Source: Escherichia coli (GTDB taxonomy: Bacteria; Pseudomonadota; Gammaproteobacteria; Enterobacterales; Enterobacteriaceae). Taken from it: 64,000 nt of DNA. The stretch lies in the NCBI RefSeq assembly GCF_003019035.1, contig NZ_CP027447.1; one strand, 5' to 3'. The notes under the pieces were generated by a model, which did no database searches, was not told the DNA's origin, and saw nothing but the letters and a program-made list of their open reading frames with translations. Positions 2,090 through 40,053 of the stretch are shown here, piece by piece (positions within the stretch are counted from its first letter, which is position 1; every line of letters begins with the position of its first letter). The position numbers were made by a program, and so were the translations under genes.

Positions 2090-3754
2090 TTACTTGTACG
2101 CCGACTGGTGAACACCAACCGCACGACCAGATGGATCGTCCATTTTTTTGAACGCTTCATCCCATTCGATCGCTTTAGCGGAAGAACACGCGACGGAAGG
2201 ACCGCCCGGCACGCACTCAGCGGCGCTCGGAAGCGGGAACAGTTCTTCAAAGATCTCGCGGTACAGATACGCTTCTTTGGACGTCGGCGTGTTGTACGGG
2301 AAGCGGAAGCGGGCAGTTTCCAGCTGTTGATCAGAAACCTGCTGCGCCGCCACTTCTTTCAGGGTGTCGATCCAACTGTAACCGACGCCATCGGAGAACT
2401 GCTCTTTCTGCCGCCAGGCCACGCTTGCGGGCAGATACGCTTCAAAACATTCACGCAGGATGTGTTTTTCCATTTTGCCGTTACCGCACATTTTATCCTG
2501 TGGGTTAATGCGCATCGCCACGTCGAGGAATTTTTTGTCGAGGAACGGAACGCGTGCTTCCACGCCCCAGGCTGACATCGCTTTGTTGGCACGCGCGCAG
2601 TCATACATATGCAGGGCCAGCAGTTTACGCACCGTCTCTTCATGCAGTTCTTTGGCATTCGGCGCTTTGTGGAAGTATAGATAACCGCCAAACACTTCAT
2701 CAGATCCTTCACCGGACAGCACCATTTTAATGCCCATCGCCTTGATCTTACGCGACATTAAATACATCGGTGTTGAAGCGCGGATTGTCGTCACGTCATA
2801 GGTTTCGATGTGGTAAATCACGTCGCGGATGGCGTCCAGACCTTCCTGTACAGTGAAGTGAATTTCATGATGCACAGTGCCCAGATGGTTTGCCACTTCC
2901 TGGGCTGCCTTCAGATCCGGTGAACCCGGCAGACCTACAGCAAAGGAGTGCAGCTGCGGCCACCAGGCTTCAGAGCGTTCCTGATCTTCCACGCGACGGG
3001 CTGCGTATTTCTTGGTGATCGCGGAAATAATTGAGGAATCCAGGCCACCAGATAGCAGCACACCGTAAGGCACATCAGACATCAGATGGCTTTTAACGGA
3101 TTCTTCCAGTGCCTGACGCAGCTCGTTTTTGTCGGTCACGTTATCTTTCACCGCATCGTAGTCGAACCAGTCGCGATGATAATAAGAACGGATTTCGCCG
3201 TCCTGACTCCACAAATAGCTCCCCGCCGGGAACTCTTTAATCGTGCGGCATACCGGCACCAGGGCTTTCATTTCTGAGGCCACATACAGCTGACCATGTT
3301 CGTCATAGCCCATATACAGTGGGATGATCCCCAGATGGTCGCGACCAATCAGATATGCATCTTTTTCGCTGTCGTACAGGGCAAAGGCAAACATGCCCTG
3401 CAAGTCGTCAAGAAATTCCGGCCCTTTTTCCTGATACAGCGCGAGGATCACTTCGCAGTCAGATCCGGTCTGGAACTGATAACGATCGCCATATTCAGCG
3501 CGCAGTGCCTGGTGGTTGTAGATTTCACCGTTTACCGCCAGTACGTGGGTTTTTTGTTGGTTGTAGAGAGGTTGCGCCCCCGCGTTAACGTCAACAATTG
3601 ACAGACGTTCGTGGGCGAGAATGGCGTTATCGCTGGCATAAATACCGGACCAGTCCGGGCCACGATGACGCATCAGGCGTGACAGCTCGAGGGCTTTCTT
3701 CCGCAGCTCAACTGCGTCTGTTTTGATATCGAATACGCCAAAAATTGAACACAT
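2090..3754 (-). CDS. asnB: asparagine synthetase B (glutamine-hydrolysing)
   Basis: Translation begins MCSIFGVFDIKTD (N-terminal Cys nucleophile), 554 aa; track ORF extends upstream to an earlier in-frame ATG, trimmed here. Confidence 0.95.
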   Translation of the reverse strand: MCSIFGVFDIKTDAVELRKKALELSRLMRHRGPDWSGIYASDNAILAHERLSIVDVNAGAQPLYNQQKTHVLAVNGEIYNHQALRAEYGDRYQFQTGSDCEVILALYQEKGPEFLDDLQGMFAFALYDSEKDAYLIGRDHLGIIPLYMGYDEHGQLYVASEMKALVPVCRTIKEFPAGSYLWSQDGEIRSYYHRDWFDYDAVKDNVTDKNELRQALEESVKSHLMSDVPYGVLLSGGLDSSIISAITKKYAARRVEDQERSEAWWPQLHSFAVGLPGSPDLKAAQEVANHLGTVHHEIHFTVQEGLDAIRDVIYHIETYDVTTIRASTPMYLMSRKIKAMGIKMVLSGEGSDEVFGGYLYFHKAPNAKELHEETVRKLLALHMYDCARANKAMSAWGVEARVPFLDKKFLDVAMRINPQDKMCGNGKMEKHILRECFEAYLPASVAWRQKEQFSDGVGYSWIDTLKEVAAQQVSDQQLETARFRFPYNTPTSKEAYLYREIFEELFPLPSAAECVPGGPSVACSSAKAIEWDEAFKKMDDPSGRAVGVHQSAYK

Positions 3755-4010
3755 AACCTTCTCCGTTAACCTGGTATTTGTTGCTTGTTGTGTTTGCTTG
3801 TTTAAAAAAATGCCGCAAAGCAGCACTGTGCGCAAGCGATTTGGCGGTGGAAAAATAAAAAACGTAATGGCGATTGCTGATTTGTGAAAAAGGATAGGGT
3901 GTGGTGACGTATTTATTGATGGATCGATAATTTTGGGCGGGTTTTATTGAATAGGATGATTTTAATGATGGCTAAAAATAAGAAACCACGCCCTGAGGCG
4001 TGGTTGCTAT

Positions 4011-4763
4011 TCAGATAACGTCGATTTCAGCGACCGACGGGTAAATCCAGCTTGGGCGGAACGGCATACTGTCGATATCGTCGAGCGACGAAACACCAGA
4101 AAGCACCAGAATCGTCTCCAGACCCGCCTGGAAGCCCGCCAGAATATCGGTACGCAGGTTATCGCCGACAATCACCGTTTCTTCCGAATGCGCCTGCATT
4201 TTGTTTAATGCCGCGCGGATGATCCACGGACTCGGCTTACCAACATAGAACGGTTTACGTCCGGAGATTTTTTCGATGCCTGCACACAACGCGCCACAGG
4301 CCGGATAAAAACCGCGCCCGTGGGTGTCCGGGTTGGTGGCGATAAAGCGTGCACCGTTAGCGACGAAATAGGCTGCTTTATGCATCATGTCCCAGTTGTA
4401 GGAACGCGTTTCGCCAACAATCACGAAATCAGGGTTCACATCGGTAATAGTGAAACCGGCTTTGTACAGTTCATGAATCAGTGCGCCTTCGCCCACCACA
4501 TACGCTTTCTTGCCTTCCTGGCGACGCAGGAAATCGGCGGTCGCCATTGCAGAGGTATAAAACACGCTGTCAGGTACATCGACACCGGCAGTGGCAAAGC
4601 GGTTCGCCAGATCTTGCCCGGTCTGCGAAGGATAGTTGGTCAGCAACACCAGCGGCAGGCCTTTATCCATAATCCCGTGCAAAAATTCCGCTGCACCCGG
4701 TACGGCGACGTTATCGTGCATCAGCACGCCGTCGATATCGCAAATTACATTTTTAATGGTCAT
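4011..4763 (-). CDS. nagD: UMP phosphatase, HAD superfamily
   Basis: 250 aa starting MTIKNVICDIDGVL (HAD DxDGV motif); conserved position after nagC. Confidence 0.9.
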   Translation of the reverse strand: MTIKNVICDIDGVLMHDNVAVPGAAEFLHGIMDKGLPLVLLTNYPSQTGQDLANRFATAGVDVPDSVFYTSAMATADFLRRQEGKKAYVVGEGALIHELYKAGFTITDVNPDFVIVGETRSYNWDMMHKAAYFVANGARFIATNPDTHGRGFYPACGALCAGIEKISGRKPFYVGKPSPWIIRAALNKMQAHSEETVIVGDNLRTDILAGFQAGLETILVLSGVSSLDDIDSMPFRPSWIYPSVAEIDVI

Positions 4764-4810: not shown

Positions 4811-6031
4811 TTAATTTTCCAGCAAATGCTGGAGCAAAATACCGTTGAGCATGGCGCGTTTTACCAGCGCAAAAGCGCCGATTGCCGAGCGGTGATCCAG
4901 CTCAGAACGTACCACCGGCAGATTAGTGCGAAACGCCTTCAGCGCCTGGGTATTAATGCAGCTTTCAATAGCAGGGAGCAGCACTTTATCGGCTTCGGTG
5001 ATTTCACCAGCAATAACAATTTTTTGCGGATTAAATAAGTTGATAGCAATGGCGATGGTTTTACCCAGATGACGACCGACATACTCAATCACTTCCGAGG
5101 CCAGGCTATCGCCTTTGTTCGCGGCTTTGCAGATAGTTTTGATGGTGCAGTCGTCCAGTGGCACACGGCTCTGGTAGCCCTGCTTTAACAGATTCAACAC
5201 CCGTTGTTCAATGGCAGCGTTGGCGGCGATAGTTTCCAGGCAGCCAAAGTTGCCACAGTGGCAGCGTTCACCCAGCGGTTCGACCTGAATATGGCCAATT
5301 TCACCGACGTTGCCGTTGCGCCCGATAAAAATTCGCCCGTTAGAGATAATCCCGGCCCCGGTTCCACGATGGACACGCACCAGAATGGAGTCTTCGCAAT
5401 CCTGACTTGCACCGAAGTAGTGCTCTGCCAGCGCCAGACTGCGGATATCGTGGCCGACAAAACAGGTCACTTTAAAACGTTCTTCCAGTGCTTCTACCAG
5501 CCCCCAGTTTTCTACCTGAATATGCGGCATGTAATGAATTTTGCCGCTGTCCGGGTCAACAAGTCCTGGCAGGATCACGGAAATGGCGATCAGCTCGCGC
5601 AGTTTGCGCTGGTAGCTATCAATAAACTGAGCAATGGCGTTAAGCAGGGCATGTTCCAGCGTCTGCTGGGTACGTTCCGGCAGCGGGTAATGTTCTTCTG
5701 CCAGCACTTTGCTACTAAGATCAAACAGAGTGATGGTGGCGTCGTGACGACCAAGCCGTACGCCGATTGCGTGGAAATTGCGGGTTTCGGTGACGATAGA
5801 GATAGCGCGGCGGCCCCCGGTGGAGGCCTGCTGATCAACTTCTTTGATCAGCCCGCGTTCGATAAGCTGACGCGTAATTTTGGTTACGCTGGCGGGGGCA
5901 AGCTGACTTTGCTCGGCAATCTGAATCCGCGAGATTGGTCCGTACTGGTCAATCAGGCGATAAACCGCCGCGCTGTTAAGCTGTTTTACGAGATCAACAT
6001 TACCTATCTGAGCTTGTCCGCCTGGTGTCAT
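4811..6031 (-). CDS. nagC: N-acetylglucosamine repressor, ROK family
   Basis: 406 aa, N-terminal HTH plus ROK sugar-kinase-like fold; nag operon context. Confidence 0.9.
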   Translation of the reverse strand: MTPGGQAQIGNVDLVKQLNSAAVYRLIDQYGPISRIQIAEQSQLAPASVTKITRQLIERGLIKEVDQQASTGGRRAISIVTETRNFHAIGVRLGRHDATITLFDLSSKVLAEEHYPLPERTQQTLEHALLNAIAQFIDSYQRKLRELIAISVILPGLVDPDSGKIHYMPHIQVENWGLVEALEERFKVTCFVGHDIRSLALAEHYFGASQDCEDSILVRVHRGTGAGIISNGRIFIGRNGNVGEIGHIQVEPLGERCHCGNFGCLETIAANAAIEQRVLNLLKQGYQSRVPLDDCTIKTICKAANKGDSLASEVIEYVGRHLGKTIAIAINLFNPQKIVIAGEITEADKVLLPAIESCINTQALKAFRTNLPVVRSELDHRSAIGAFALVKRAMLNGILLQHLLEN

Positions 6032-6039
6032 ACTTTCTC

Positions 6040-8048
<2,009 letters not shown>

Positions 8049-8380
8049 TATTCACCTCAATAAGTAAAATGTAAGCCGTTGGCGGATTAGGCATCTTTAA
8101 GCGTAACCTGGATTTGCGCAGACAGGCGTCAATCCGACCTGATTTTTTGAATGATAAAATAAGTTTTCTGGTTTAGCCAGTAAAAGGGAGTGATGATAAC
8201 GATATTTGGTGACAAAACTCACAAAAGACACGCGTTTAATTTGCGATACGAATTAAATTTTCACACACTCTGTAGCAGATGATCTAACAATCTGATTACA
8301 GAACATCGGCAGTACAATTTGCAGCAAAATAAAAATACGGCTTTAAACGAGCCAAATAGGGTTCTCGTAGGGGGAATAAG
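8049..8380. promoter_or_regulatory. divergent nagB / nagE promoter region
   Basis: 332-bp AT-rich intergenic region between divergently oriented nagB and nagE; in this family it holds CRP and NagC operators, but individual sites were not mapped here. Confidence 0.5.
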
Positions 8381-10327
8381 ATGAATATTTTAGGTTTTTT
8401 CCAGCGACTCGGTAGGGCGTTACAGCTCCCTATCGCGGTGCTGCCGGTGGCGGCGCTGTTGCTGCGATTCGGTCAGCCAGATTTACTTAACGTTGCGTTT
8501 ATTGCCCAGGCGGGCGGTGCGATTTTTGATAACCTCGCATTAATCTTCGCCATCGGTGTGGCATCCAGCTGGTCGAAAGACAGCGCAGGTGCGGCGGCAC
8601 TGGCGGGTGCGGTAGGTTACTTTGTGTTAACCAAAGCGATGGTTACCATCAACCCAGAAATTAACATGGGTGTACTGGCGGGTATCATTACCGGTCTGGT
8701 TGGTGGCGCAGCTTATAACCGTTGGTCCGATATTAAACTGCCGGACTTCCTGAGTTTCTTCGGCGGCAAACGCTTTGTGCCGATTGCCACCGGCTTCTTC
8801 TGCCTGGTGCTGGCGGCCATTTTTGGTTACGTCTGGCCGCCGGTACAGCACGCTATCCATGCAGGCGGCGAGTGGATCGTTTCTGCGGGCGCGCTGGGTT
8901 CCGGTATCTTTGGTTTCATCAACCGTCTGCTGATCCCAACCGGTCTGCATCAGGTGCTGAACACCATCGCCTGGTTCCAGATTGGTGAATTCACCAACGC
9001 GGCGGGTACGGTTTTCCACGGTGATATCAACCGCTTCTATGCCGGTGACGGCACCGCGGGGATGTTCATGTCCGGCTTCTTCCCGATCATGATGTTCGGT
9101 CTGCCGGGTGCGGCGCTGGCGATGTACTTCGCAGCACCGAAAGAGCGCCGTCCGATGGTTGGCGGGATGTTGCTTTCTGTTGCTGTTACTGCGTTCCTGA
9201 CCGGTGTGACTGAGCCGCTGGAATTCCTGTTCATGTTCCTTGCACCGCTGCTGTACCTCCTGCACGCACTGCTGACCGGTATCAGCCTGTTTGTGGCAAC
9301 GTTGCTGGGTATCCATGCCGGCTTCTCTTTCTCTGCGGGGGCTATCGACTACGCGTTGATGTATAACCTGCCGGCCGCCAGCCAGAACGTCTGGATGCTG
9401 CTGGTGATGGGGGTTGTCTTCTTCGCTATCTACTTCGTGGTGTTCAGTTTGGTTATCCGCATGTTCAACCTGAAAACGCCAGGTCGTGAAGATAAAGAAG
9501 ACGAGATCGTTACTGAAGAGGCTAACAGCAATACTGAAGAAGGTCTCAATCAACTGGCAACCAACTATATTGCTGCGGTTGGCGGTACTGACAACCTGAA
9601 AGCCATTGACGCCTGTATTACTCGTCTGCGCCTGACCGTGGTTGACTCAGCTCGCGTCAACGATGCGATGTGTAAACGTCTGGGGGCTTCTGGGGTAGTG
9701 AAACTGAACAAACAGACTATTCAGGTGATTGTTGGCGCGAAAGCGGAATCCATTGGCGATGCAATGAAGAAAGTTGTTGCCCGTGGTCCGGTAGCCGCTG
9801 CGTCAGCTGAAACTGCTCCGGCAACTGCCGCGCCTGTAGCAAAACCGCAGGCTGTACCAAACGCAGTATCTATCGCGGAGCTGGTATCGCCGATTACCGG
9901 TGATGTTGTGGCACTGGATCAGGTTCCTGACGAAGCATTCGCCAGCAAAGCGGTGGGTGACGGTGTGGCGGTGAAACCGACAGATAAAATCGTCGTATCA
10001 CCAGCCGCAGGGACTATCGTGAAAATCTTCAACACCAACCACGCATTCTGCCTGGAAACTGAAAAAGGCGCGGAGATTGTCGTCCATATGGGTATCGACA
10101 CCGTAGCGCTGGAAGGTAAAGGCTTTAAACGTCTGGTGGAAGAGGGCGCGCAAGTAAGCGCAGGGCAACCGATTCTGGAAATGGATCTGGATTATCTGAA
10201 CGAAAACGCCCGCTCGATGATTAGCCCGGTGGTTTGCAGCAATATCGACGATTTCAGCGGCTTGATCATTAAAGCTCAGGGCCATGTCGTGGCGGGTCAA
10301 ACGCCGCTGTATGAAATCAAAAAGTAA
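8381..10327 (+). CDS. nagE: PTS N-acetylglucosamine-specific EIICBA component
   Basis: 648 aa; membrane EIIC domain followed by EIIB and EIIA domains. Confidence 0.95.
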   Translation: MNILGFFQRLGRALQLPIAVLPVAALLLRFGQPDLLNVAFIAQAGGAIFDNLALIFAIGVASSWSKDSAGAAALAGAVGYFVLTKAMVTINPEINMGVLAGIITGLVGGAAYNRWSDIKLPDFLSFFGGKRFVPIATGFFCLVLAAIFGYVWPPVQHAIHAGGEWIVSAGALGSGIFGFINRLLIPTGLHQVLNTIAWFQIGEFTNAAGTVFHGDINRFYAGDGTAGMFMSGFFPIMMFGLPGAALAMYFAAPKERRPMVGGMLLSVAVTAFLTGVTEPLEFLFMFLAPLLYLLHALLTGISLFVATLLGIHAGFSFSAGAIDYALMYNLPAASQNVWMLLVMGVVFFAIYFVVFSLVIRMFNLKTPGREDKEDEIVTEEANSNTEEGLNQLATNYIAAVGGTDNLKAIDACITRLRLTVVDSARVNDAMCKRLGASGVVKLNKQTIQVIVGAKAESIGDAMKKVVARGPVAAASAETAPATAAPVAKPQAVPNAVSIAELVSPITGDVVALDQVPDEAFASKAVGDGVAVKPTDKIVVSPAAGTIVKIFNTNHAFCLETEKGAEIVVHMGIDTVALEGKGFKRLVEEGAQVSAGQPILEMDLDYLNENARSMISPVVCSNIDDFSGLIIKAQGHVVAGQTPLYEIKK

Positions 10328-10335
10328 TCTTCTTT

Positions 10336-10410
10336 ATGCCTGATGCGACGCTTGAGCGTCGCATCCAACAATGACAAGCGGTGGAGATCTTCTCTGCCGC
10401 TTTTTTTTTC
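10336..10410 (+). terminator. REP-like hairpin plus T-run after nagE
   Basis: GATGCGACGC-TTGAG-CGTCGCATC palindrome followed by GCCGC and a run of nine T. Confidence 0.5.
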
Positions 10411-10529
10411 ATCAATCATCCCCATAATCTCAGTGAGATTTTCGATTTTCACTAACTAACAGTTGTCAGCCTGTCCCGCTTATAAGATCATACGCCGTTA
10501 TACGTTGTTTACGCTTTGAGGAATCCACG

Positions 10530-19499: not shown

Positions 19500-19514
19500 A
19501 CACATTTAATAAGA

Positions 19515-19544
19515 AAAAGGGCGGTCAGAAGATCGCCCTTTTTT
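19515..19544 (+). terminator. pgm intrinsic terminator
   Basis: AAAAGGGCGGTC-AGAA-GATCGCCCTTTTTT. Confidence 0.7.
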
Positions 19545-19554
19545 ACTTATGACT

Positions 19555-19653
19555 GCCTGATGCGCTACGCTTATCAGGCTTGGGAAGATGGTGCAATGTA
19601 TTGAATTTGCTCTATTTTGTAGGCCGGATAAGGCGTTCACGCCGCATCCGGCA
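19555..19653. repeat. BIME: two REP palindromic units
   Basis: GCCTGATGCGCTACGCTTATCAGGC and GGCCGGATAAGGCGTTCACGCCGCATCCGGCA. Confidence 0.75.
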
Positions 19654-19703
19654 TGAACAACGAGCGCTTTGCCAACAAACTGAATAGCTCAAGGGAATTC
19701 AAA

Positions 19704-20198
19704 ATGAAGACCAAAAGGAGTCTGGTCGTCAGAGTGGCATTAATTACCGCCACACTACTGCTGACAGCATGCGCCCAACCTGAACAATCATCATTAGCTG
19801 GTGACTGGTTACTGACCCCTAAAGATAAAACCAGAGGATTAACGGGGAGCATTGCGGTAAATATTGCGCCTTCCCGGTGTAAGACAAATTGCCGTGGCGA
19901 TAACTTACCTGATAATACCCGCCGCTGGCAGTTGTCAGGCGGGAACGAAAAAGAACTTACTTATCTTCATGATATGTCAGCACAAGAAAAGACCGGTTTA
20001 AATCCTGAATGGCAATGCTACACCTCATTTTTTATGGGGATTTGCCAGGGTAAGCCCGGCACTCGACCGATAGTTAATGAGGATTATGTCAGCGAAAGCG
20101 GATTTTTTGGCTCGATGATGCATGTAGGGATTATTGAGTTGCGACGCTGTCAGTCAGAAAATTGCCAGCAAGAATTGAAAGCGATAAACACACATTAA
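19704..20198 (+). CDS. ybfP: lipoprotein
   Basis: 164 aa from MKTKRSLVVRVALITATLLLTAC (lipobox LTAC). Confidence 0.8.
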   Translation: MKTKRSLVVRVALITATLLLTACAQPEQSSLAGDWLLTPKDKTRGLTGSIAVNIAPSRCKTNCRGDNLPDNTRRWQLSGGNEKELTYLHDMSAQEKTGLNPEWQCYTSFFMGICQGKPGTRPIVNEDYVSESGFFGSMMHVGIIELRRCQSENCQQELKAINTH

Positions 20199-20238
20199 AA
20201 TAGCGAGTCCGGGAATGAAACCCGGACCTGAACATGTC

Positions 20239-20889
20239 TTATTGCGTGATTGTTTCTTTCATTTGATACTGCATTTCCCAGAGTTCAGTAAGCGAAATAA
20301 CTTTTCTTGTTCTTGCTTCTTCACATTGTACCCATAAGAAAGGGTAGAAAGTGAAGGCTTCCGTTGCCGATAATTTTATTACGTCTTCTTGCCATTGCGG
20401 CCAGCGTACATTTTCATAGAAGGTATCTAAATCACCGGATAATGCCCACTGAAGAAACTCAGAATATCCAACCTCCAGACTTTCCCAATTCAGCGTATCT
20501 GGCGCAAAATAATAAACGCAGCCAGTATCTTCCCCAAGATCGCCACCATTAAGAGCAAAAATTCCCCCTGCGACATCATCGGCGATGGGTAAAGCCCGCA
20601 CGCTTGCGAATTCAGGGCGTTGTGTCCAACTTGCTGGATCTCGTGGTAACCGGGGGTGACCAGAGCCTGCTATGCGTAACCAACCGTTATCAATCAGCAG
20701 ACCTCCGGAGCCATAGACAAGCGCACCCATCGGTGATTTTGTTGTAACCTGTAATTGATAAAGTGCGGTTTCGGCTAAATCTTTATTAACCGGTAAGAGT
20801 TCGGCATGGTTTGTGGCTTCTTTTAACCAATTCTGGATTATTGGCCAGGCTGAATCTTCAGTATTTACTAACTGACTCACTTCACGCAT
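20239..20889 (-). CDS. ybfG: DUF2625-family protein (ybfG-like), apparently intact
   Basis: About 216 aa if started at MREVSQL, which has an AAGGAG Shine-Dalgarno; the track ORF continues to an upstream ATG with a poor RBS. Confidence 0.6.
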   Translation of the reverse strand: MREVSQLVNTEDSAWPIIQNWLKEATNHAELLPVNKDLAETALYQLQVTTKSPMGALVYGSGGLLIDNGWLRIAGSGHPRLPRDPASWTQRPEFASVRALPIADDVAGGIFALNGGDLGEDTGCVYYFAPDTLNWESLEVGYSEFLQWALSGDLDTFYENVRWPQWQEDVIKLSATEAFTFYPFLWVQCEEARTRKVISLTELWEMQYQMKETITQ

Positions 20890-21011
20890 CGCTACTTGCT
20901 CCTTGTGTGCTACGGTGTCATTTATGATGAGGCATTGTATGGGACATTTTTTAAATATTAAGTTCCTTATATTTGAATAAAAAATGACTTTATCCATACA
21001 TTGCCACTTTT

Positions 21012-21156
21012 TTCAAAGCATAAACCGATACCCAATACCGGTTTCAGTAATGAAATGGCGGGGCGGACGAGATCCTGTTCCAGTTTTTGTCGCAAATGCC
21101 TCATATAATTACGCAAATAGTTGCTGTGTTCGACCGCGTTTGGACCCTACACCTGC
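21012..21156 (-). pseudogene. duplicated 3' fragment of kdpE (last ~47 codons plus stop), frameshifted
   Basis: About 92% identical over 145 bp to 25347-25491 (kdpE 3' end), first 50 nt identical, one 1-nt indel; seen by direct comparison. Confidence 0.75.
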
Positions 21157-21197
21157 CGGATGCGGCATAAATAACGAACTCTTTGTCAACAAACAGA

Positions 21198-21226
21198 AAG
21201 GGCGATCATTCAATCGCCCTTTTTTA
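21198..21226. terminator. hairpin terminator downstream of potE
   Basis: AAAGGGCGAT-CATTCAA-TCGCCCTTTTTT. Confidence 0.6.
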
Positions 21227-21237
21227 TTTCGCTTTTT

Positions 21238-25313: not shown

Positions 25314-25347
25314 ATTAATAAAAGGCAGGATGTATTAAAATTAATAT

Positions 25348-26025
25348 TCAAAGCATAAACCGATACCCAATACCGGTTTCAGTAATGAAATGGCGGGGGC
25401 GAGCGGGATCCTGTTCCAGTTTTTGTCGCAGATGTCCCATATAAATACGCAAATAATGGCTGTGTTCGACCGCGTTTGGCCCCCACACCTGGTTAAGGAG
25501 CTGGCGCTGGGTGAGCACTTTTCCGGCATTGTTGAGCAGCACCGCCAGCAGGCGAAACTCAATCGGGGTGAGATGCACCTCTTCCTCACCGCGATGGATC
25601 ACGCGGGCGGCTAAATCGACGGTCACATCGGAAAATTTCACCAGCGGATCGGGCGCGGTGGTGGCGGAGTGGCGGCGTAAAGCGACGCGCAGACGGGCCT
25701 GCAATTCGCCAATGCCAAACGGCTTACTCAGGTAATCATCCGCTCCGGCATCCAGCGCGGCGATTTTGTCGCTCTCTTCGCTGCGTGCGGAAAGCACAAT
25801 CACCGGCACCGCGCTCCACTGGCGCAGGTCGCGGATAAACTCAATCCCATCACCATCGGGCAGGCCGAGATCGAGAATAATCAAATCTGGCTTACGGGTT
25901 GCCGCTTCCAGCAAGCCGCGTTGCAGCGTTTCGGCCTCAAAGACGCGCATCCCGTCGCCCTCCAGCGCCGTGCGCAGAAAGCGACGAATAGCCTGTTCAT
26001 CTTCAACAATCAGAACGTTTGTCAC
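25348..26025 (-). CDS. kdpE: response regulator KdpE (OmpR family)
   Basis: 225 aa; receiver domain with D52-type site, winged-helix C-terminus. Confidence 0.95.
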   Translation of the reverse strand: MTNVLIVEDEQAIRRFLRTALEGDGMRVFEAETLQRGLLEAATRKPDLIILDLGLPDGDGIEFIRDLRQWSAVPVIVLSARSEESDKIAALDAGADDYLSKPFGIGELQARLRVALRRHSATTAPDPLVKFSDVTVDLAARVIHRGEEEVHLTPIEFRLLAVLLNNAGKVLTQRQLLNQVWGPNAVEHSHYLRIYMGHLRQKLEQDPARPRHFITETGIGYRFML

Positions 26026-33863: not shown

Positions 33864-36800
33864 ATGAGCGGAAAACCGGCGGCGCGTCAGGGCGACATGA
33901 CGCAGTATGGCGGTAGCATTGTTCAGGGTTCAGCCGGGGTACGTATTGGTGCTCCCACCGGCGTGGCCTGTTCGGTGTGCCCCGGCGGGGTGACGTCCGG
34001 CCATCCGGTCAATCCGCTGCTCGGTGCGAAGGTCCTTCCCGGCGAAACCGACCTTGCCCTGCCCGGCCCGCTGCCGTTCATCCTCTCCCGCACCTACAGC
34101 AGTTACCGGACAAAAACGCCCGCGCCGGTGGGGAGCCTCGGCCCCGGCTGGAAAATGCCCGCGGATATCCGCTTACAGCTGCGCGATAACACACTGATAC
34201 TCAGTGATAACGGCGGCAGGAGCCTGTATTTTGAGCACCTGTTTCCCGGTGAGGACGGTTACAGCCGCAGCGAGTCACTCTGGCTGGTGCGCGGCGGCGT
34301 GGCGAAACTGGATGAAGGTCACCGGCTGGCCGCACTCTGGCAGGCGCTGCCGGAAGAGCTTCGCCTGAGTCCGCATCGTTATCTGGCGACGAACAGTCCG
34401 CAGGGGCCGTGGTGGGTACTCGGCTGGTGTGAGCAGGTGCCGGAGGCGGATGAGGTGCTGCCCGCGCCGCTGCCGCCGTACCGGGTACTGACCGGGCTGG
34501 TGGACCGCTTCGGGCGCACACAGACGTTTCACCGTGAGGCTGGCGGTGAATTCAGCGGCGAAATCACCGGCGTGACGGATGGTGCCGGGCGTCACTTCCG
34601 GCTGGTACTGACCACGCAGGCGCTGCGGGCAGAAGAGGCCCGGCAGCAGGCCATTTCCGGCGGGACGGAACCGTCCGCTTTTCCTGATACCCTGCCGGAC
34701 TACACGGAATATGGCCGGGACAACGGCATCCGCCTGTCCGCCGTGTGGCTGACGCACGACCCGGAATATCCGGACAACCTGCCAGCCGCGCCGCTGGTAC
34801 GCTATGGCTGGACGCCACGCGGCGAACTGGCGGCGGTGTATGACCGCAGCGGCACACAGGTGCGCAGCTTTACTTACGATGATAAATACCGGGGCCGGAT
34901 GGTGGCGCACCGTCACACGGGCCGGCCGGAAATCCGTTACCGTTACGACAGCGACGGGCGGGTGACAGAACAGCTAAACCCGGCAGGCTTAAGCTACACG
35001 TATCAGTATGAGAAAGACCGCATCACCATCACCGACAGCCTGGACCGCCGTGAAGTCCTGCACACGCAGGGCGAAGGCGGGCTGAAGCGGGTGGTGAAAA
35101 AGGAACACGCGGACGGCAGCGTCACGCAGAGTCAGTTTGACGCGGTGGGCAGGCTTAAGGCACAGACGGATGCCGCAGGCCGGACGACTGAGTACAGCCC
35201 GGATGTGGTGACGGGACTCATCACGCGCATCACCACGCCGGATGGCAGGGCATCGGCGTTTTACTATAACCACCACAGCCAGTTAACGTCAGCCACCTGG
35301 CCTGACGGGCTGGAAATACGCCGGGAATATGATGAATCCGGCCGTCTGATTCAGGAAACCGCCCCTGACGGCGATATCACCCGCTACCGTTATGATAATC
35401 CACACAGTGACTTCCCCTGCGCAACGGAGGATGCCACCGGCAGCCGGAAAACCATGACGTGGAGCCGTTACGGTCAGTTGCTGACCTTCACCGACTGTTC
35501 CGGCTACCAGACCCGTTATGACCATGACCGCTTCGGGCAGATGACGGCGGTGCACCGCGAGGAAGGCCTGAGCCAGTGCCGCGCATACGACAGCCGTGGA
35601 CAGTTAATTGCGGTGAAAGACACGCAGGGCCATGAAACGCGGTATGAATACAACGCCGCCGGTGACCTGACCGCCGTCATTGCCCCGGACGGCAGCAGAA
35701 ACGGGGCACAGTACGATGCGTGGGGAAAGGCCGTCCGTACCACGCAGGGCGGGCTGACCCGCAGTATGGAATACGATGCTGCAGGACGGGTCATCCGCCT
35801 GACAAACGAAAACGGCAGCCACACCACCTTCCGTTACGATGTACTCGACCGGCTGATACAGGAAACCGGCTTTGACGGCCGCACACAGCGTTACCACCAC
35901 GACCTGACCGGCAAACTTATCCGCAGCGAGGATGAGGGGCTGGTCACCCACTGGCACTATGACGAAGCAGACCGCCTCACGCAGCGCACCGTGAATGGCG
36001 AAACCGCAGAGCGGTGGCAGTATGACGAACGCGGCTGGCTGACAGGCATCAGCCATCTCAGCGAAGGGCACCGGGTGACGGTGCATTACAGGTATGATGA
36101 GAAAGGCCGCCTGACCGGTGAGCGCCAGACGGTGCATCACCCGCAGACGGAAGCACTGCTCTGGCAGCATGAAACCAGACATGCGTACAATGCGCAGGGG
36201 CTGGCGAACCGCTGTATACCGGACAGCCTGCCCGCCGTGGAATGGCTGACTTATGGCAGTGGTTACCTGGCAGGGATGAAGCTGGGTGACTCGCCCCTGG
36301 TGGAGTACACCCGCGACCGCCTGCACCGGGAAACGCTGCGCAGCTTCGGCCGTTATGAACTCACCACCGCTTATACCCCTGCCGGGCAGTTACAGAGCCA
36401 GCACCTGAACAGCCTGCAGTATGACCGCGATTACACCTGGAACGACAACGGCGAACTCATTCGCATCAGCAGCCCGCGCCAGACCCGGAGTTACAGCTAC
36501 AGCGACTCCGGCAGGCTGACCGGCGTTCACACCACCGCAGCGAACCTGGATATCCGCATCCCGTATGCCACGGACCCGGCAGGTAACCGCCTGCCCGACC
36601 CGGAGCTGCACCCGGACAGCACCCTCAGCATGTGGCCGGATAACCGTATCGCCCGTGACGCGCACTATCTTTACCGGTATGACCGTCACGGCAGGCTGAC
36701 GGAGAAAACCGACCTCATCCCGGAAGGGGTTATCCGCACGGATGATGAGCGGACTCACCGGTACCATTACGACAGCCGGCACCGGCTGGTGCACTACACG

Positions 36801-38063
36801 CGGACACAATATGCAGAGCCGCTGGTCGAAAGTCGCTATCTTTACGACCCGCTGGGCCGCAGGGTGGCAAAACGGGTGTGGCGGCGTGAACGGGACCTGA
36901 CGGGCTGGATGTCGCTGTCACGGAAACCGGAAGTGACCTGGTACGGCTGGGACGGCGACCGGCTGACCACGATACAGAACGACAGAACCCGCATCCAGAC
37001 GATTTATCAGCCGGGGAGCTTCACGCCACTCATCAGGGTCGAAACTGCCACCGGTGAGCTGGCGAAAACGCAGCGCCGCAGCCTGGCGGATGCGCTTCAG
37101 CAGTCCGGCGGCGAAAACGGTGGCAGTGTGGTGTTCCCGCCGGTGCTGGTGCAGATGCTCGACCGGCTGGAAAGTGAAATCCTGGCTGACCGGGTGAGTG
37201 AGGAAAGCCGCCGCTGGCTGGCATCGTGCGGCCTGACGGTGGCGCAGATGCAAAACCAGATGGACCCGGTGTACACACCGGCGCGAAAAATCCACCTGTA
37301 CCACTGCGACCATCGCGGCCTGCCGCTGGCGCTTGTCAGCACGGAAGGGGCAACAGAATGGTGCGCAGAATACGATGAGTGGGGCAACCTGCTGAATGAA
37401 GAGAACCCGCACCAGCTGCAGCAGCTCATCCGCCTGCCGGGTCAGCAGTATGATGAGGAGTCCGGCCTGTATTACAACCGCCACCGCTATTATGACCCGC
37501 TGCAGGGGCGGTATATCACTCAGGATCCTATTGGGCTGAAGGGGGGATGGAATTTTTATCAGTATCCGTTGAATCCGGTTCAGTATATAGATTCAATGGG
37601 ACTGGCATCAAAATATGGACACTTAAATAATGGCGGATATGGAGCGAGACCCAACAAACCGCCTACGCCCGATCCAAGTAAATTGCCAGACATAGCGAAA
37701 CAATTAAGACTGCCATATCCTATTGACCAGGCCAGTAGTGCGCCTAATGTTTTCAAAACATTCTTCAGAGCATTAAGCCCTTACGACTACACACTGTATT
37801 GCAGGAAGTGGGTAAAACCAAATCTGACTTGTACGCCACAGGATGATCCCCAGTATCCAGGGATGGATACAAAGACAGCAAGTGATTACCTGCCACAGAC
37901 AAATTGGCCAACAACTCAATTACCACCAGGATATACTTGTGCAGAACCCTATTTATTCCCAGACATTAATAAACCCGATGGGCCAGCAACAGCAGGGATA
38001 GATGATTTGGGTGAAATTTTAGCTAAAATGAAACAGAGAACATCGAGAGGAATAAGAAAATGA
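33864..38063 (+). CDS. rhsC: Rhs-family polymorphic toxin (N-terminal PAAR-like region, YD-repeat shell, DPIGL core end, ~175-aa variable C-terminal tip)
   Basis: 1399 aa; PAARQGD motif at residues 5-11; GC-rich repeat core; DPIGL at 37523-37537; sharp GC drop after it; located after ybfA as rhsC is in K-12. Confidence 0.9.
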
Positions 38064-38629
38064 AAAGAATTTTGTTCTTTTTGCTGATGATATTTGTTAG
38101 TTTTGGTGTTATAGCTGATTGCGAAACACAAGCTAAAGATCAAGATTGCTTTACCATTTTCACTAAGGGTACTATTTTTTCCGCGTTTCCTGTCTTAAAT
38201 AATAAAACCATATGGAGATGGTATCAGAATGAGGACATAGGTGAGTATTATTGGCAAACAGAACTTGGTATATGTAAAAATAACAAATTCACACCAAGCG
38301 GGGCGAGACTCTTAATTCGCGTCGGATCACTACGCCTTAATGAAAATCATGCAACCAAAGGAACGTTGCAGGAGTTGCTAAATACAGCAGAAAAAACGGC
38401 GTTTCTCGGCGATCGGTTTAGAAGTTATATAAGAGCGGGTATCTATCAAAAAAAGAGCAGTGATCCAGCTCAGTTGTTGGCAGTCCTTGATAATTCAATC
38501 ATGGTTAAATATTTTAAAGATGAGAAGCCAACTTATGCTCGAATGACAGCACATCTCCCGAACAAAGATGAGTCTTACGAATGTTTAACAAAAGTACAGC
38601 ATGAACTGCTTCGTAGTGAAGAAAAATAA
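38060..38629 (+). CDS. predicted cognate immunity protein of the Rhs tip (signal-peptide bearing)
   Basis: 189 aa; start overlaps the rhs stop (ATGA); N-terminal [19 protein letters not shown] hydrophobic signal; AT-rich like the toxin tip. Confidence 0.55.
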
Positions 38630-38797
38630 AATCTCTTCCTGAGAAAATAAATTAACTATTCGAAAAAATATGTTCTTAATGGGTATCCAGGTACACCAGA
38701 AGGTCGATTTGGAAAAATGGATTCCGATGGTAAGAATATCATATATTCTGAATGTAATGTTTTACCCACAACTTTTGAGATTCGATAGGTGTAGAGC

Positions 38798-39100
38798 ATG
38801 AGAAACTCACTAATATTACTTATTATGATATTGTTTACAATATCACACTCAGTATTTGGAAAAGAAAATTCAGTGGAAATTTTAGTAAATAGTCGTGAAA
38901 TGGCTTTGGAATTATCATATGTTTACATTAAATATGTATACGGGAAAGAAAAAGCAGAATTTCAGAAACCATATAGTATTACAGATGACAATAATTGTTG
39001 GAAAATCGAGGGAAAACAACCGAAGACGTTAGGAGGAAATTTTACAATACTAATAGCGAAAAAAGATGGGCAAGTGTTGAATGTAATACACACAAAATAA
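38798..39100 (+). CDS. small secreted protein, likely orphan immunity protein
   Basis: 100 aa with signal peptide MRNSLILLIMILFTISHSVFG; AT-rich; lies directly after a start-less toxin-tip-like reading frame (38651-38788). Confidence 0.45.
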   Translation: MRNSLILLIMILFTISHSVFGKENSVEILVNSREMALELSYVYIKYVYGKEKAEFQKPYSITDDNNCWKIEGKQPKTLGGNFTILIAKKDGQVLNVIHTK

Positions 39101-39279
39101 TCCACTGTACAGTCGATTCAAATATTTTACCAAGGTGTGTTTTGTAACAATTTTGTGTACAATATGACTCTACATATCGACGAAAAAACCACTTGATTTG
39201 ACAGGAACACATTCAAAAAAATTTCTTTATTCATTTCAGGAGCGATTTTCATCTGTTACTTGAAGTATCTGTGAGATTA

Positions 39280-39645
39280 AGTGACTCCCCCTAACGTCGT
39301 ACTAAATAGTAATTACTGTCCATACCGGGAGCAGTATTCGGCGCTCCCCACATGCAGCAGAATAACCGCATCAGCGAAGATGTATTGTATTTTTACTATC
39401 ACAATGTGTACGGACGGTTTATGGAAAAGAATGAAAATTAGATACGCGATGGGGCGGCAGGTTACACGGTTATCACTACGATAGCCAATACTGGCTGGTG
39501 CATTACCGCCGTGAACAATAGGACGCCGTACTGCTGGAAATTTCTTACCTTTATGACTCCCCGCGCCGCCGTATTGGGAAACGGGAAGCAATCAAGATGA
39601 GGCTGATATAATGTGCGGAATGCCTGAGTATTTTTAGAATAGGGG
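39280..39645 (+). pseudogene. decayed fragment of a divergent Rhs core
   Basis: GC-rich island in an AT-rich stretch; frames read YHYDSQYWLVHYRREQ* and LYDSPRRRIGKRE, resembling the core segment [12 protein letters not shown]...[12 protein letters not shown] of the intact rhs, with stops and frameshifts. Confidence 0.5.
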
Positions 39646-39651
39646 GGTAAT

Positions 39652-40053
39652 ATGTTTGATAGAATATATCTTGGTGATCGAGCAATAAAAAAAATTGAAT
39701 TTTATTTATGGACTAAACAAATTAGAATTCAGGTTAATTTAATCTCAAGGATAGCCTATGGTACAACAGAATGGAATTTTTATGATAATGAAGACTTAGA
39801 AGATGGTTATTTGGTATTTTCAGATGTTAGTTTCTTCAATATAACTCCTAATGGCTCTATTCCTGATGATTATATAATTTCAATAATTACAGATAATGTC
39901 AATGTTGAATATTTTGAATCAACTATAGTTGCAGTTGGACAAATTCCAAATACAAATTCTGGAGACATTGATAATATTGGTGAGTGTCAAATTTTCATCA
40001 GGTATAAACACAGCTGGATTGAGAATAAATTCAAAGAAAAAATAATTGAATAA
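39652..40053 (+). CDS. hypothetical cytoplasmic protein, possible orphan immunity protein
   Basis: 133 aa; GGGGGG Shine-Dalgarno; very AT-rich; sits immediately after the decayed Rhs fragment. Confidence 0.45.
   Translation: MFDRIYLGDRAIKKIEFYLWTKQIRIQVNLISRIAYGTTEWNFYDNEDLEDGYLVFSDVSFFNITPNGSIPDDYIISIITDNVNVEYFESTIVAVGQIPNTNSGDIDNIGECQIFIRYKHSWIENKFKEKIIE

Follow-up and report, generated by a model that had tools for sequence, protein, structure and literature searches.

The window analysed here, a 64,000-nt stretch of Escherichia coli contig NZ_CP027447.1 (assembly GCF_003019035.1), carries the DUF2625 gene ybfG on its minus strand, between the lipoprotein gene ybfP and a kdpE-paralogue fragment, ybfI' (Table 1). 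The gene is intact, and comparison with other species suggests that DUF2625 proteins serve as immunity proteins against NucA/NucB-type DNase toxins, of which YbfG may be an orphan representative. Its reading frame runs from an ATG at 20889-20887 to a TAA at 20241-20239 (216 codons plus the stop, 651 nt). The original prediction of an uninterrupted frame of about 216 codons with a strong ribosome-binding site is confirmed on both counts, the site being an AAGGAG at 20904-20899 that is unchanged in K-12 and in all sampled alleles in an upstream alignment. The mechanical open reading frame (ORF) over the gene starts at an ATG at 20997 and would encode 252 aa. We rejected this product, as the extension overlaps the promoter, is missing in homologues and is at odds with the 216 aa annotated by RefSeq, and we place the start at 20889 because homologues begin at the methionine of the 216-aa form (nearly invariant in the family), the Pfam match runs from residue 5, and RefSeq gives the same product.

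Judged by profile comparison, the assignment to DUF2625 is secure. YbfG matches Pfam PF10946 with E = 8e-87 (290 bits, cut-off 27; profile positions 2-206 of 207), and NCBIfam NF008494 with 510 bits (cut-off 278), covering residues 1-216 of 216. All 20 invariant residues of the family are kept in the window protein which, together with a dN/dS of 0.27 between alleles, indicates that ybfG is no chance ORF. On the points by which a pseudogene would be recognised, an uninterrupted frame, a start codon, a ribosome-binding site and signs of purifying selection are all present. The 1,151-bp locus is 100% identical in E. coli ECCNB12-2, where the product, also WP_001209503.1, is annotated as intact. 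The N-terminus (MREVSQLVNTEDSAWP), read by eye from the translation, has no hydrophobic signal segment, and YbfG is predicted to be cytoplasmic, the compartment expected for immunity to a DNase.

The comparison with K-12 bears out the statement in the original prediction that ybfG is annotated as a pseudogene there. In MG1655 the gene (b0691, 715947-716597) is annotated as such, likewise the adjacent ybfI (b4636), and PGAP labels ybfG as carrying an internal stop in a K-12 derivative whose sequence is identical to K-12. A codon alignment of the K-12 and window genes is collinear (both 651 nt) with 22 nucleotide differences, 12 of them non-synonymous, and codon 70 is TGG in the window and TAG in K-12 (W70*), so that the K-12 gene is neither intact nor identical to the window copy. 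K-12 is only 2 nt away from the commonest intact allele, WP_001208814.1, which is carried by E. coli B as well as by unrelated isolates from humans, cattle and pigs, and these two differences are W70* and G109V. Among non-E. coli homologues, position 70 is tryptophan in 55 of 61 and position 109 glycine in all 61. Because these positions are conserved and the intact allele lies just 2 nt away, both changes are damaging and specific to the K-12 lineage, and K-12 lost ybfG through these two point mutations.

At least 80% of the ybfG locus was found in 1,773 of 5,426 complete E. coli genomes, the remaining matches being merely to the kdpE paralogue or to ybfP. Haplotypes were counted with allele-specific 35-mers centred on codon 70, giving 364 genomes with the K-12 TAG haplotype, 1,284 with the A/B1-type TGG haplotype and 130 with the window-type TGG haplotype, the O7:K1 strain CE10 among the last. 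Codon 70 is thus TGG in 1,414 carriers outside the TAG class. Among the TAG matches listed (30), all are K-12-like and include MG1655, BW25113, DH5alpha-type strains, HB101, J53 derivatives and others of ~4.5-4.7 Mb (one O16:H48). Of non-K-12 carriers sampled at even steps (seven A/B1-type and four window-type), 10 of 11 have ybfG annotated as intact: six of the seven A/B1-type genomes, all encoding WP_001208814.1, and all four window-type genomes; the seventh A/B1-type strain, ES2, has E136*. Two further records, chosen for their odd annotation, have the gene disrupted, one by IS1 and the other by a frameshift/deletion. An intact ybfG is therefore the rule among carriers and K-12 the exception. 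The original prediction that the gene is intact here, so that the strain may retain a functional copy, is supported, though intactness is not special to the strain, and the contrast is already known and encoded in RefSeq and EcoGene-style annotation; its practical message is that K-12 is exceptional. The window allele differs from WP_001208814.1 by 10 synonymous and 10 non-synonymous changes (dS 0.073, dN 0.020, ratio 0.27), and all 10 replacements sit in variable columns of the family, a pattern that fits moderate purifying selection. A 1,899-bp contig (JAIJJM010000630.1) of a 'Collinsella sp.' metagenome-assembled genome also encodes a YbfG with 95% identity to the E. coli protein, most likely through E. 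coli contamination.

In K-12, the ybfG promoter is among 28 sigma-E promoters mapped by RACE (consensus -35 GGAACTT; Rhodius et al., PMC1312014), and the gene is induced 25-fold by sigma-E (Bury-Moné et al., PMC2731931). The window keeps an exact -35 element, and the -10 region was placed by its spacing of 15-16 nt from it. A sigma-E promoter is expected to have GGAACTT, ~16 nt and a TCAAA-like -10; the -10 region of the window differs by one base from that of the mapped K-12 promoter, and the induction data are for K-12 only. This promoter probably drives ybfG in the window as well.

The AlphaFold2 model of YbfG (pLDDT 93.8, pTM 0.91) predicts an alpha+beta fold of the SUKH type (SMI1/KNR4-like), the fold feature of the SUKH superfamily, whose members have been proposed as immunity proteins for nuclease toxins (Zhang et al., PMC3113570). 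Foldseek placed Tdi2 and Tdi1 at the top (E = 5e-4 for Tdi2), and structure comparison of the model scored 12.9 with Bacteroides Tdi1 (DUF1851), 11.3 with the Agrobacterium Tdi Atu4351, 10.2 with Lin2918, 9.3 with YobK, 8.4 with SMI1/KNR4, 7.1 with Knr4, 5.2 with RhsPI and 5.0 with Syd. Sequence searches of the PDB with YbfG, as a single sequence and as a profile, returned nothing meaningful; no SUKH model of Pfam, including SMI1_KNR4 and SUKH_6, matched at E <= 0.01; and no PADLOC defence model matched YbfG or YbfP. The DUF2625 motif ADD..GG.F falls in register with the SUKH-1 motif AED.FG.QF of toxin-linked immunity proteins in a weak hhalign alignment. Literature searches for DUF2625 and PF10946 found no paper in the library searched, and ybfG is named there only as a pseudogene or within sigma-E or stress gene sets; the functional assignment of DUF2625 as an immunity family appears not to have been described before.

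A scan with one genome per species found a DUF2625 relative in at least 546 species, and 73 loci of the best 80 were analysed, with all ORFs up to 6 kb to either side grouped into families. No operon partner is conserved across the 73 loci, and a constant association of DUF2625 with a toxin was therefore rejected; the usual neighbours are ordinary genes (short-chain dehydrogenases, Na+/H+ exchangers, Usp, DinB). Two loci, however, have the gene order typical of polymorphic toxins. In the first, from Clostridium homopropionicum, the DUF2625 gene lies 31 bp past the end of an Rhs gene that codes for at least 1,975 aa (DUF6531, RHS repeats and a C-terminal DNase_NucA_NucB domain), and is itself followed by an orphan Rhs tip and by Imm53. 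In the second, from Anoxybacillus, the pair sits between pta and the gene for a lipoate ligase, and 21 bp separate DUF2625 from the gene before it; the 457-aa product of that gene resembles the C. homopropionicum Rhs tip over its last 163 residues (phmmer 4e-46) and matches PF14040 with 32 bits (cut-off 23.8).

The association was also examined from the toxin side, by searching with the toxin core and reading the downstream gene at eight PF14040 loci picked blind to that gene. It was DUF2625 in three (Halalkalibacter, Anaerosinus and C. butyricum pCBU1), a ~210-aa SMI1/KNR4 (SUKH-1) protein in another three (a Rahnella CdiA-VENN tip, a Leptospira Rhs and Photobacterium pPHDD1), and some other small gene in two (Pseudomonas and Capnocytophaga). 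The three DUF2625 genes found in this way share their arrays with toxins of the AHH, YwqJ-deaminase or GH-E type and with immunity genes of the SUFU or ankyrin type. In total, the order toxin then DUF2625 occurs at five loci, co-oriented and with a spacing of 21-38 bp. These pairings suggest that the PF14040 toxin clade is mostly partnered with SUKH-fold proteins, DUF2625 being one of the partners. Aligned end to end, the E. coli protein has 41-45% identity with the toxin-linked DUF2625 proteins and shares each of the 20 invariant residues with them. The toxin core is itself 55-75% identical across phyla, and this could explain why DUF2625 is unusually conserved. PF14040 (the B. subtilis NucA/NucB type) is distinct from the 'Tox-NucA' of Zhang et al. 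2012, which is the Serratia/Anabaena NucA family.

Given the gene order and the predicted fold, we consider it likely that DUF2625 proteins confer immunity to PF14040 DNase toxins wherever both are encoded as a pair. They would bind, one to one, the NucA/NucB-type DNase domain in which polymorphic toxins built on Rhs, CdiA or other delivery scaffolds terminate, and so neutralise the toxin. Because no toxin gene adjoins ybfG in E. coli, we read it as a candidate orphan immunity gene, the product of which may have kept this activity and would act against DNases delivered by competitors; for the E. coli protein this role is plausible but tentative, falling a little short of an even chance. Taken together, the account in which an intact ybfG with a SUKH-type fold provides orphan immunity against PF14040 DNases, would be expressed from the sigma-E promoter known from K-12, and was lost in K-12 is, in our estimate, about evenly balanced between being right and wrong.

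Several observations weigh against this account. The hhalign comparisons of DUF2625 with three SUKH-1 immunity proteins are weak (E from 2e-4 to 4e-4, probability 35-49%), and a fused toxin-linker-immunity AlphaFold2 run, which reached a pTM of 0.69 and came without inter-domain error, does not establish docking. Of the DUF2625 genes from different species, 68 of 70 stand alone among unrelated neighbours and lack a conserved partner, and the top neighbour family occurs in just 12 of the 73 loci, the rest mirroring synteny within genera. All five toxin-linked DUF2625 loci are in Firmicutes, and the three Gram-negative toxin loci pair with SUKH-1 instead. No toxin gene adjoins ybfG, its upstream neighbour being the kdpE fragment and its downstream neighbour ybfP, and a tblastn search of the window with six toxin cores yielded chance matches only (best E 0.2), with no NucA/NucB remnant. 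The presumed -10 of the window allele, which is CE10-like, carries one T>C single-nucleotide polymorphism relative to K-12 in the upstream alignment. About two-thirds of E. coli genomes are without ybfG, and where present it has been disrupted independently (E136*, the IS1 insertion and the frameshift), so the gene is dispensable.

Some of these points would fit a toxin-unrelated role, in which YbfG would use its SUKH fold to bind proteins in housekeeping or stress physiology and, by analogy with Syd and SecY, would have an endogenous partner in the sigma-E response. The gene belongs to the sigma-E regulon in K-12, most DUF2625 genes stand alone among ordinary metabolic genes, and the identity of 41-45% across phyla is unusually high for an immunity protein. 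Five independent toxin-then-DUF2625 pairs are, however, hard to reconcile with such a role, and the high identity is explicable by the equally conserved toxin core. Absence from about two-thirds of E. coli and inactivation in K-12 are unlike a core stress factor, and in one study a ybfG knock-out serves as a neutral control that is expected to behave like wild type (PMC10067269). We regard this explanation as unlikely.

The patchy distribution could alternatively mean that ybfG is a horizontally acquired remnant without function, intact in the window by chance or recency and drifting to loss, with K-12 further along the same path. At least four independent inactivations are known (W70*, E136*, the IS1 insertion and the frameshift/deletion), the neighbouring ybfI is a pseudogene, ybfP has an internal stop in one strain, and the nearest non-E. 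coli homologues are just ~55% identical. A remnant of this kind would not be expected to show the selection signature seen here, with a dN/dS of 0.27 between alleles that have diverged by 7% at synonymous sites, every replacement (10/10) confined to variable columns and every invariant residue (20/20) kept; an identical WP_001208814.1 in six unrelated sampled isolates and a conserved promoter and ribosome-binding site point the same way, and we doubt this explanation. That DUF2625 is instead an enzyme or small-molecule binder, with D67, R72, R83, D104, D105, Y158, W163 and W166 as catalytic or ligand site, is very improbable, since the existence of invariant charged and aromatic residues and of some loci adjoining esterases, oxidoreductases or transporters is set against significant fold matches that include no enzyme, the lack of a conserved neighbour, and the alignment of ADD..GG.F with the motif of toxin-linked SUKH-1 proteins.

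Returning to the immunity reading, the closest known systems are the DUF1851 proteins Tdi1 and Tdi2, which confer immunity to the Tde (Ntox15) type VI DNase effectors (PDB 8g0k, 8fzz, 6itw). YbfG shares just 10-14% identity with them and has no sequence-level match, their partner toxin is Ntox15 and not PF14040, and ybfG in E. coli has neither an adjacent toxin nor type VI secretion genes. From the SUKH-1/SMI1-KNR4 proteins (YobK, RhsPI and the Rahnella, Leptospira and Photobacterium partners), DUF2625 differs in escaping the SMI1_KNR4 and SUKH_6 Pfam models. Syd, the SecY-binding SUKH-2 protein of E. coli, is a much weaker structural match to YbfG than the immunity proteins are, and we found no evidence linking YbfG to SecY. 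A further parallel is with the concept of orphan immunity genes and of acquired clusters for interbacterial defence. Here too an immunity-type gene is kept in the absence of its toxin; ybfG has a patchy distribution and sits in a small variable islet, and DUF2625 in other taxa sometimes lies beside other immunity-type genes. E. coli ybfG differs in being a single gene without an array, integrase or recombinase, and its protective role is a proposal.

A further extension, which we think improbable, is that envelope damage from contact-dependent attack induces YbfG through sigma-E as a cytoplasmic inhibitor, cross-protecting against NucA/NucB DNases delivered by the Rhs, CDI and type VI systems of other species. 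If true, DUF2625 would be a previously unrecognised, widespread SUKH-like immunity family, the envelope-stress regulon would be linked to inducible anti-toxin defence, and the protection would be missing from K-12, the recipient normally used in the laboratory, through loss of the gene. Should the immunity role itself be confirmed, a function could be assigned both to a domain of unknown function present in over 500 species and to an E. coli y-gene, ybfG would exemplify an orphan immunity gene under sigma-E control, and K-12 ybfG knock-outs would be valid as neutral controls solely because the gene is already dead.

Table 1 Coordinates of ybfG, its expression signals and the surrounding islet in the window
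Feature	Position	Strand	Details
ybfG coding sequence	20239..20889	-	216 aa, DUF2625 (PF10946), intact; RefSeq WP_001209503.1
Shine-Dalgarno AAGGAG	20899..20904	-	9 nt 5' of the ybfG ATG; read from sequence
Presumed sigma-E -10 region	20938..20945	-	window GTCCCATA; K-12 and all sampled A/B1-type alleles GTTCCATA
Sigma-E type -35 GGAACTT	20960..20966	-	exact consensus match; same as K-12
ybfP, lipoprotein gene	19704..20198	+	convergent with ybfG; signal sequence and Cys lipobox MKTKRSLVVRVALITATLLLTAC; K-12 label 'lipoprotein YbfP'
GC-rich hairpin between ybfP and ybfG	20204..20228	.	terminator-like on the minus strand (terminator-like scan)
ybfI', kdpE-paralogue 3' fragment, pseudogene	21012..21155	-	directly 5' of the ybfG promoter; 144 bp
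Terminator-hairpin direct repeat, left copy	19511..19548	.	38 nt; bounds the islet; repeat search, 79% identity, spacing 1681 nt
Terminator-hairpin direct repeat, right copy	21192..21229	.	just downstream of potE
Inverted REP-like sequences	19636-19653 / 21154-21171		at the islet edges

Other small genes accompany DUF2625 or its candidate toxin partners. Solitary DUF2625 genes lie beside DUF2314-ankyrin and SUFU genes in Flavobacterium (6001-10431), DUF596 in Citrobacter (4988-7785) and DUF1963 in Kosakonia (6834-8828), of which DUF2314-ankyrin, DUF596 and DUF1963 are, we presume, polymorphic-toxin immunity families. SUFU appears among the polymorphic-toxin immunity families listed in Zhang et al. 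2012. These contexts hint at poly-immunity arrays without toxins. The NucA/NucB tip is followed by a 135-aa protein without a Pfam match in Pseudomonas sp. KNUC1026 (3001-4049) and by a DUF6707 protein in Capnocytophaga (1992-2981), possibly further immunity families for the PF14040 toxin.

The window itself contains an Rhs element (33864-40053) 13 kb from ybfG. Its Rhs ORF (33864-38063; 1,399 aa) has DUF6531, RHS repeats and an RHS core, and a C-terminal tip that has no Pfam match and differs from PF14040; 3' of it come a 189-aa ORF (4-nt overlap), an Imm-NTF2-2 gene, a DUF6258 gene and an IS-type transposase. From its gene content, the region looks like a toxin/orphan-immunity array. ybfG was ruled out as the cognate immunity gene of this Rhs by the different tip and by the immunity-type genes that the Rhs has downstream of itself.

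ybfP, ybfG and ybfI' together form a variable islet of ~1.65 kb between pgm and potE (19549-21191). CFT073 has one copy of the hairpin and no islet, with pgm abutting potE, which suggests that the islet was gained or lost by recombination at the terminator hairpins. ybfI' matches the 3' end of kdpE, 4 kb away at 25347-25491, with ~90% identity, and its annotation is that of an incomplete winged-helix pseudogene with a frameshift. A 1-bp indel sets it apart from the K-12 copy, and PGAP accordingly calls the frameshift in the window and none in K-12. In E. coli 23CRST011 (NZ_AP045770.1, 3602-4886), pgm-ybfP is followed by kdpE, without ybfG, ybfI', potE, speF and speFL. A simple recombination between ybfI' and kdpE would leave ybfG in place, and so fails to explain this deletion. 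E. coli JP538 has a ybfP with an annotated internal stop (1701-2195) next to an intact ybfG, and the two islet genes therefore decay independently.
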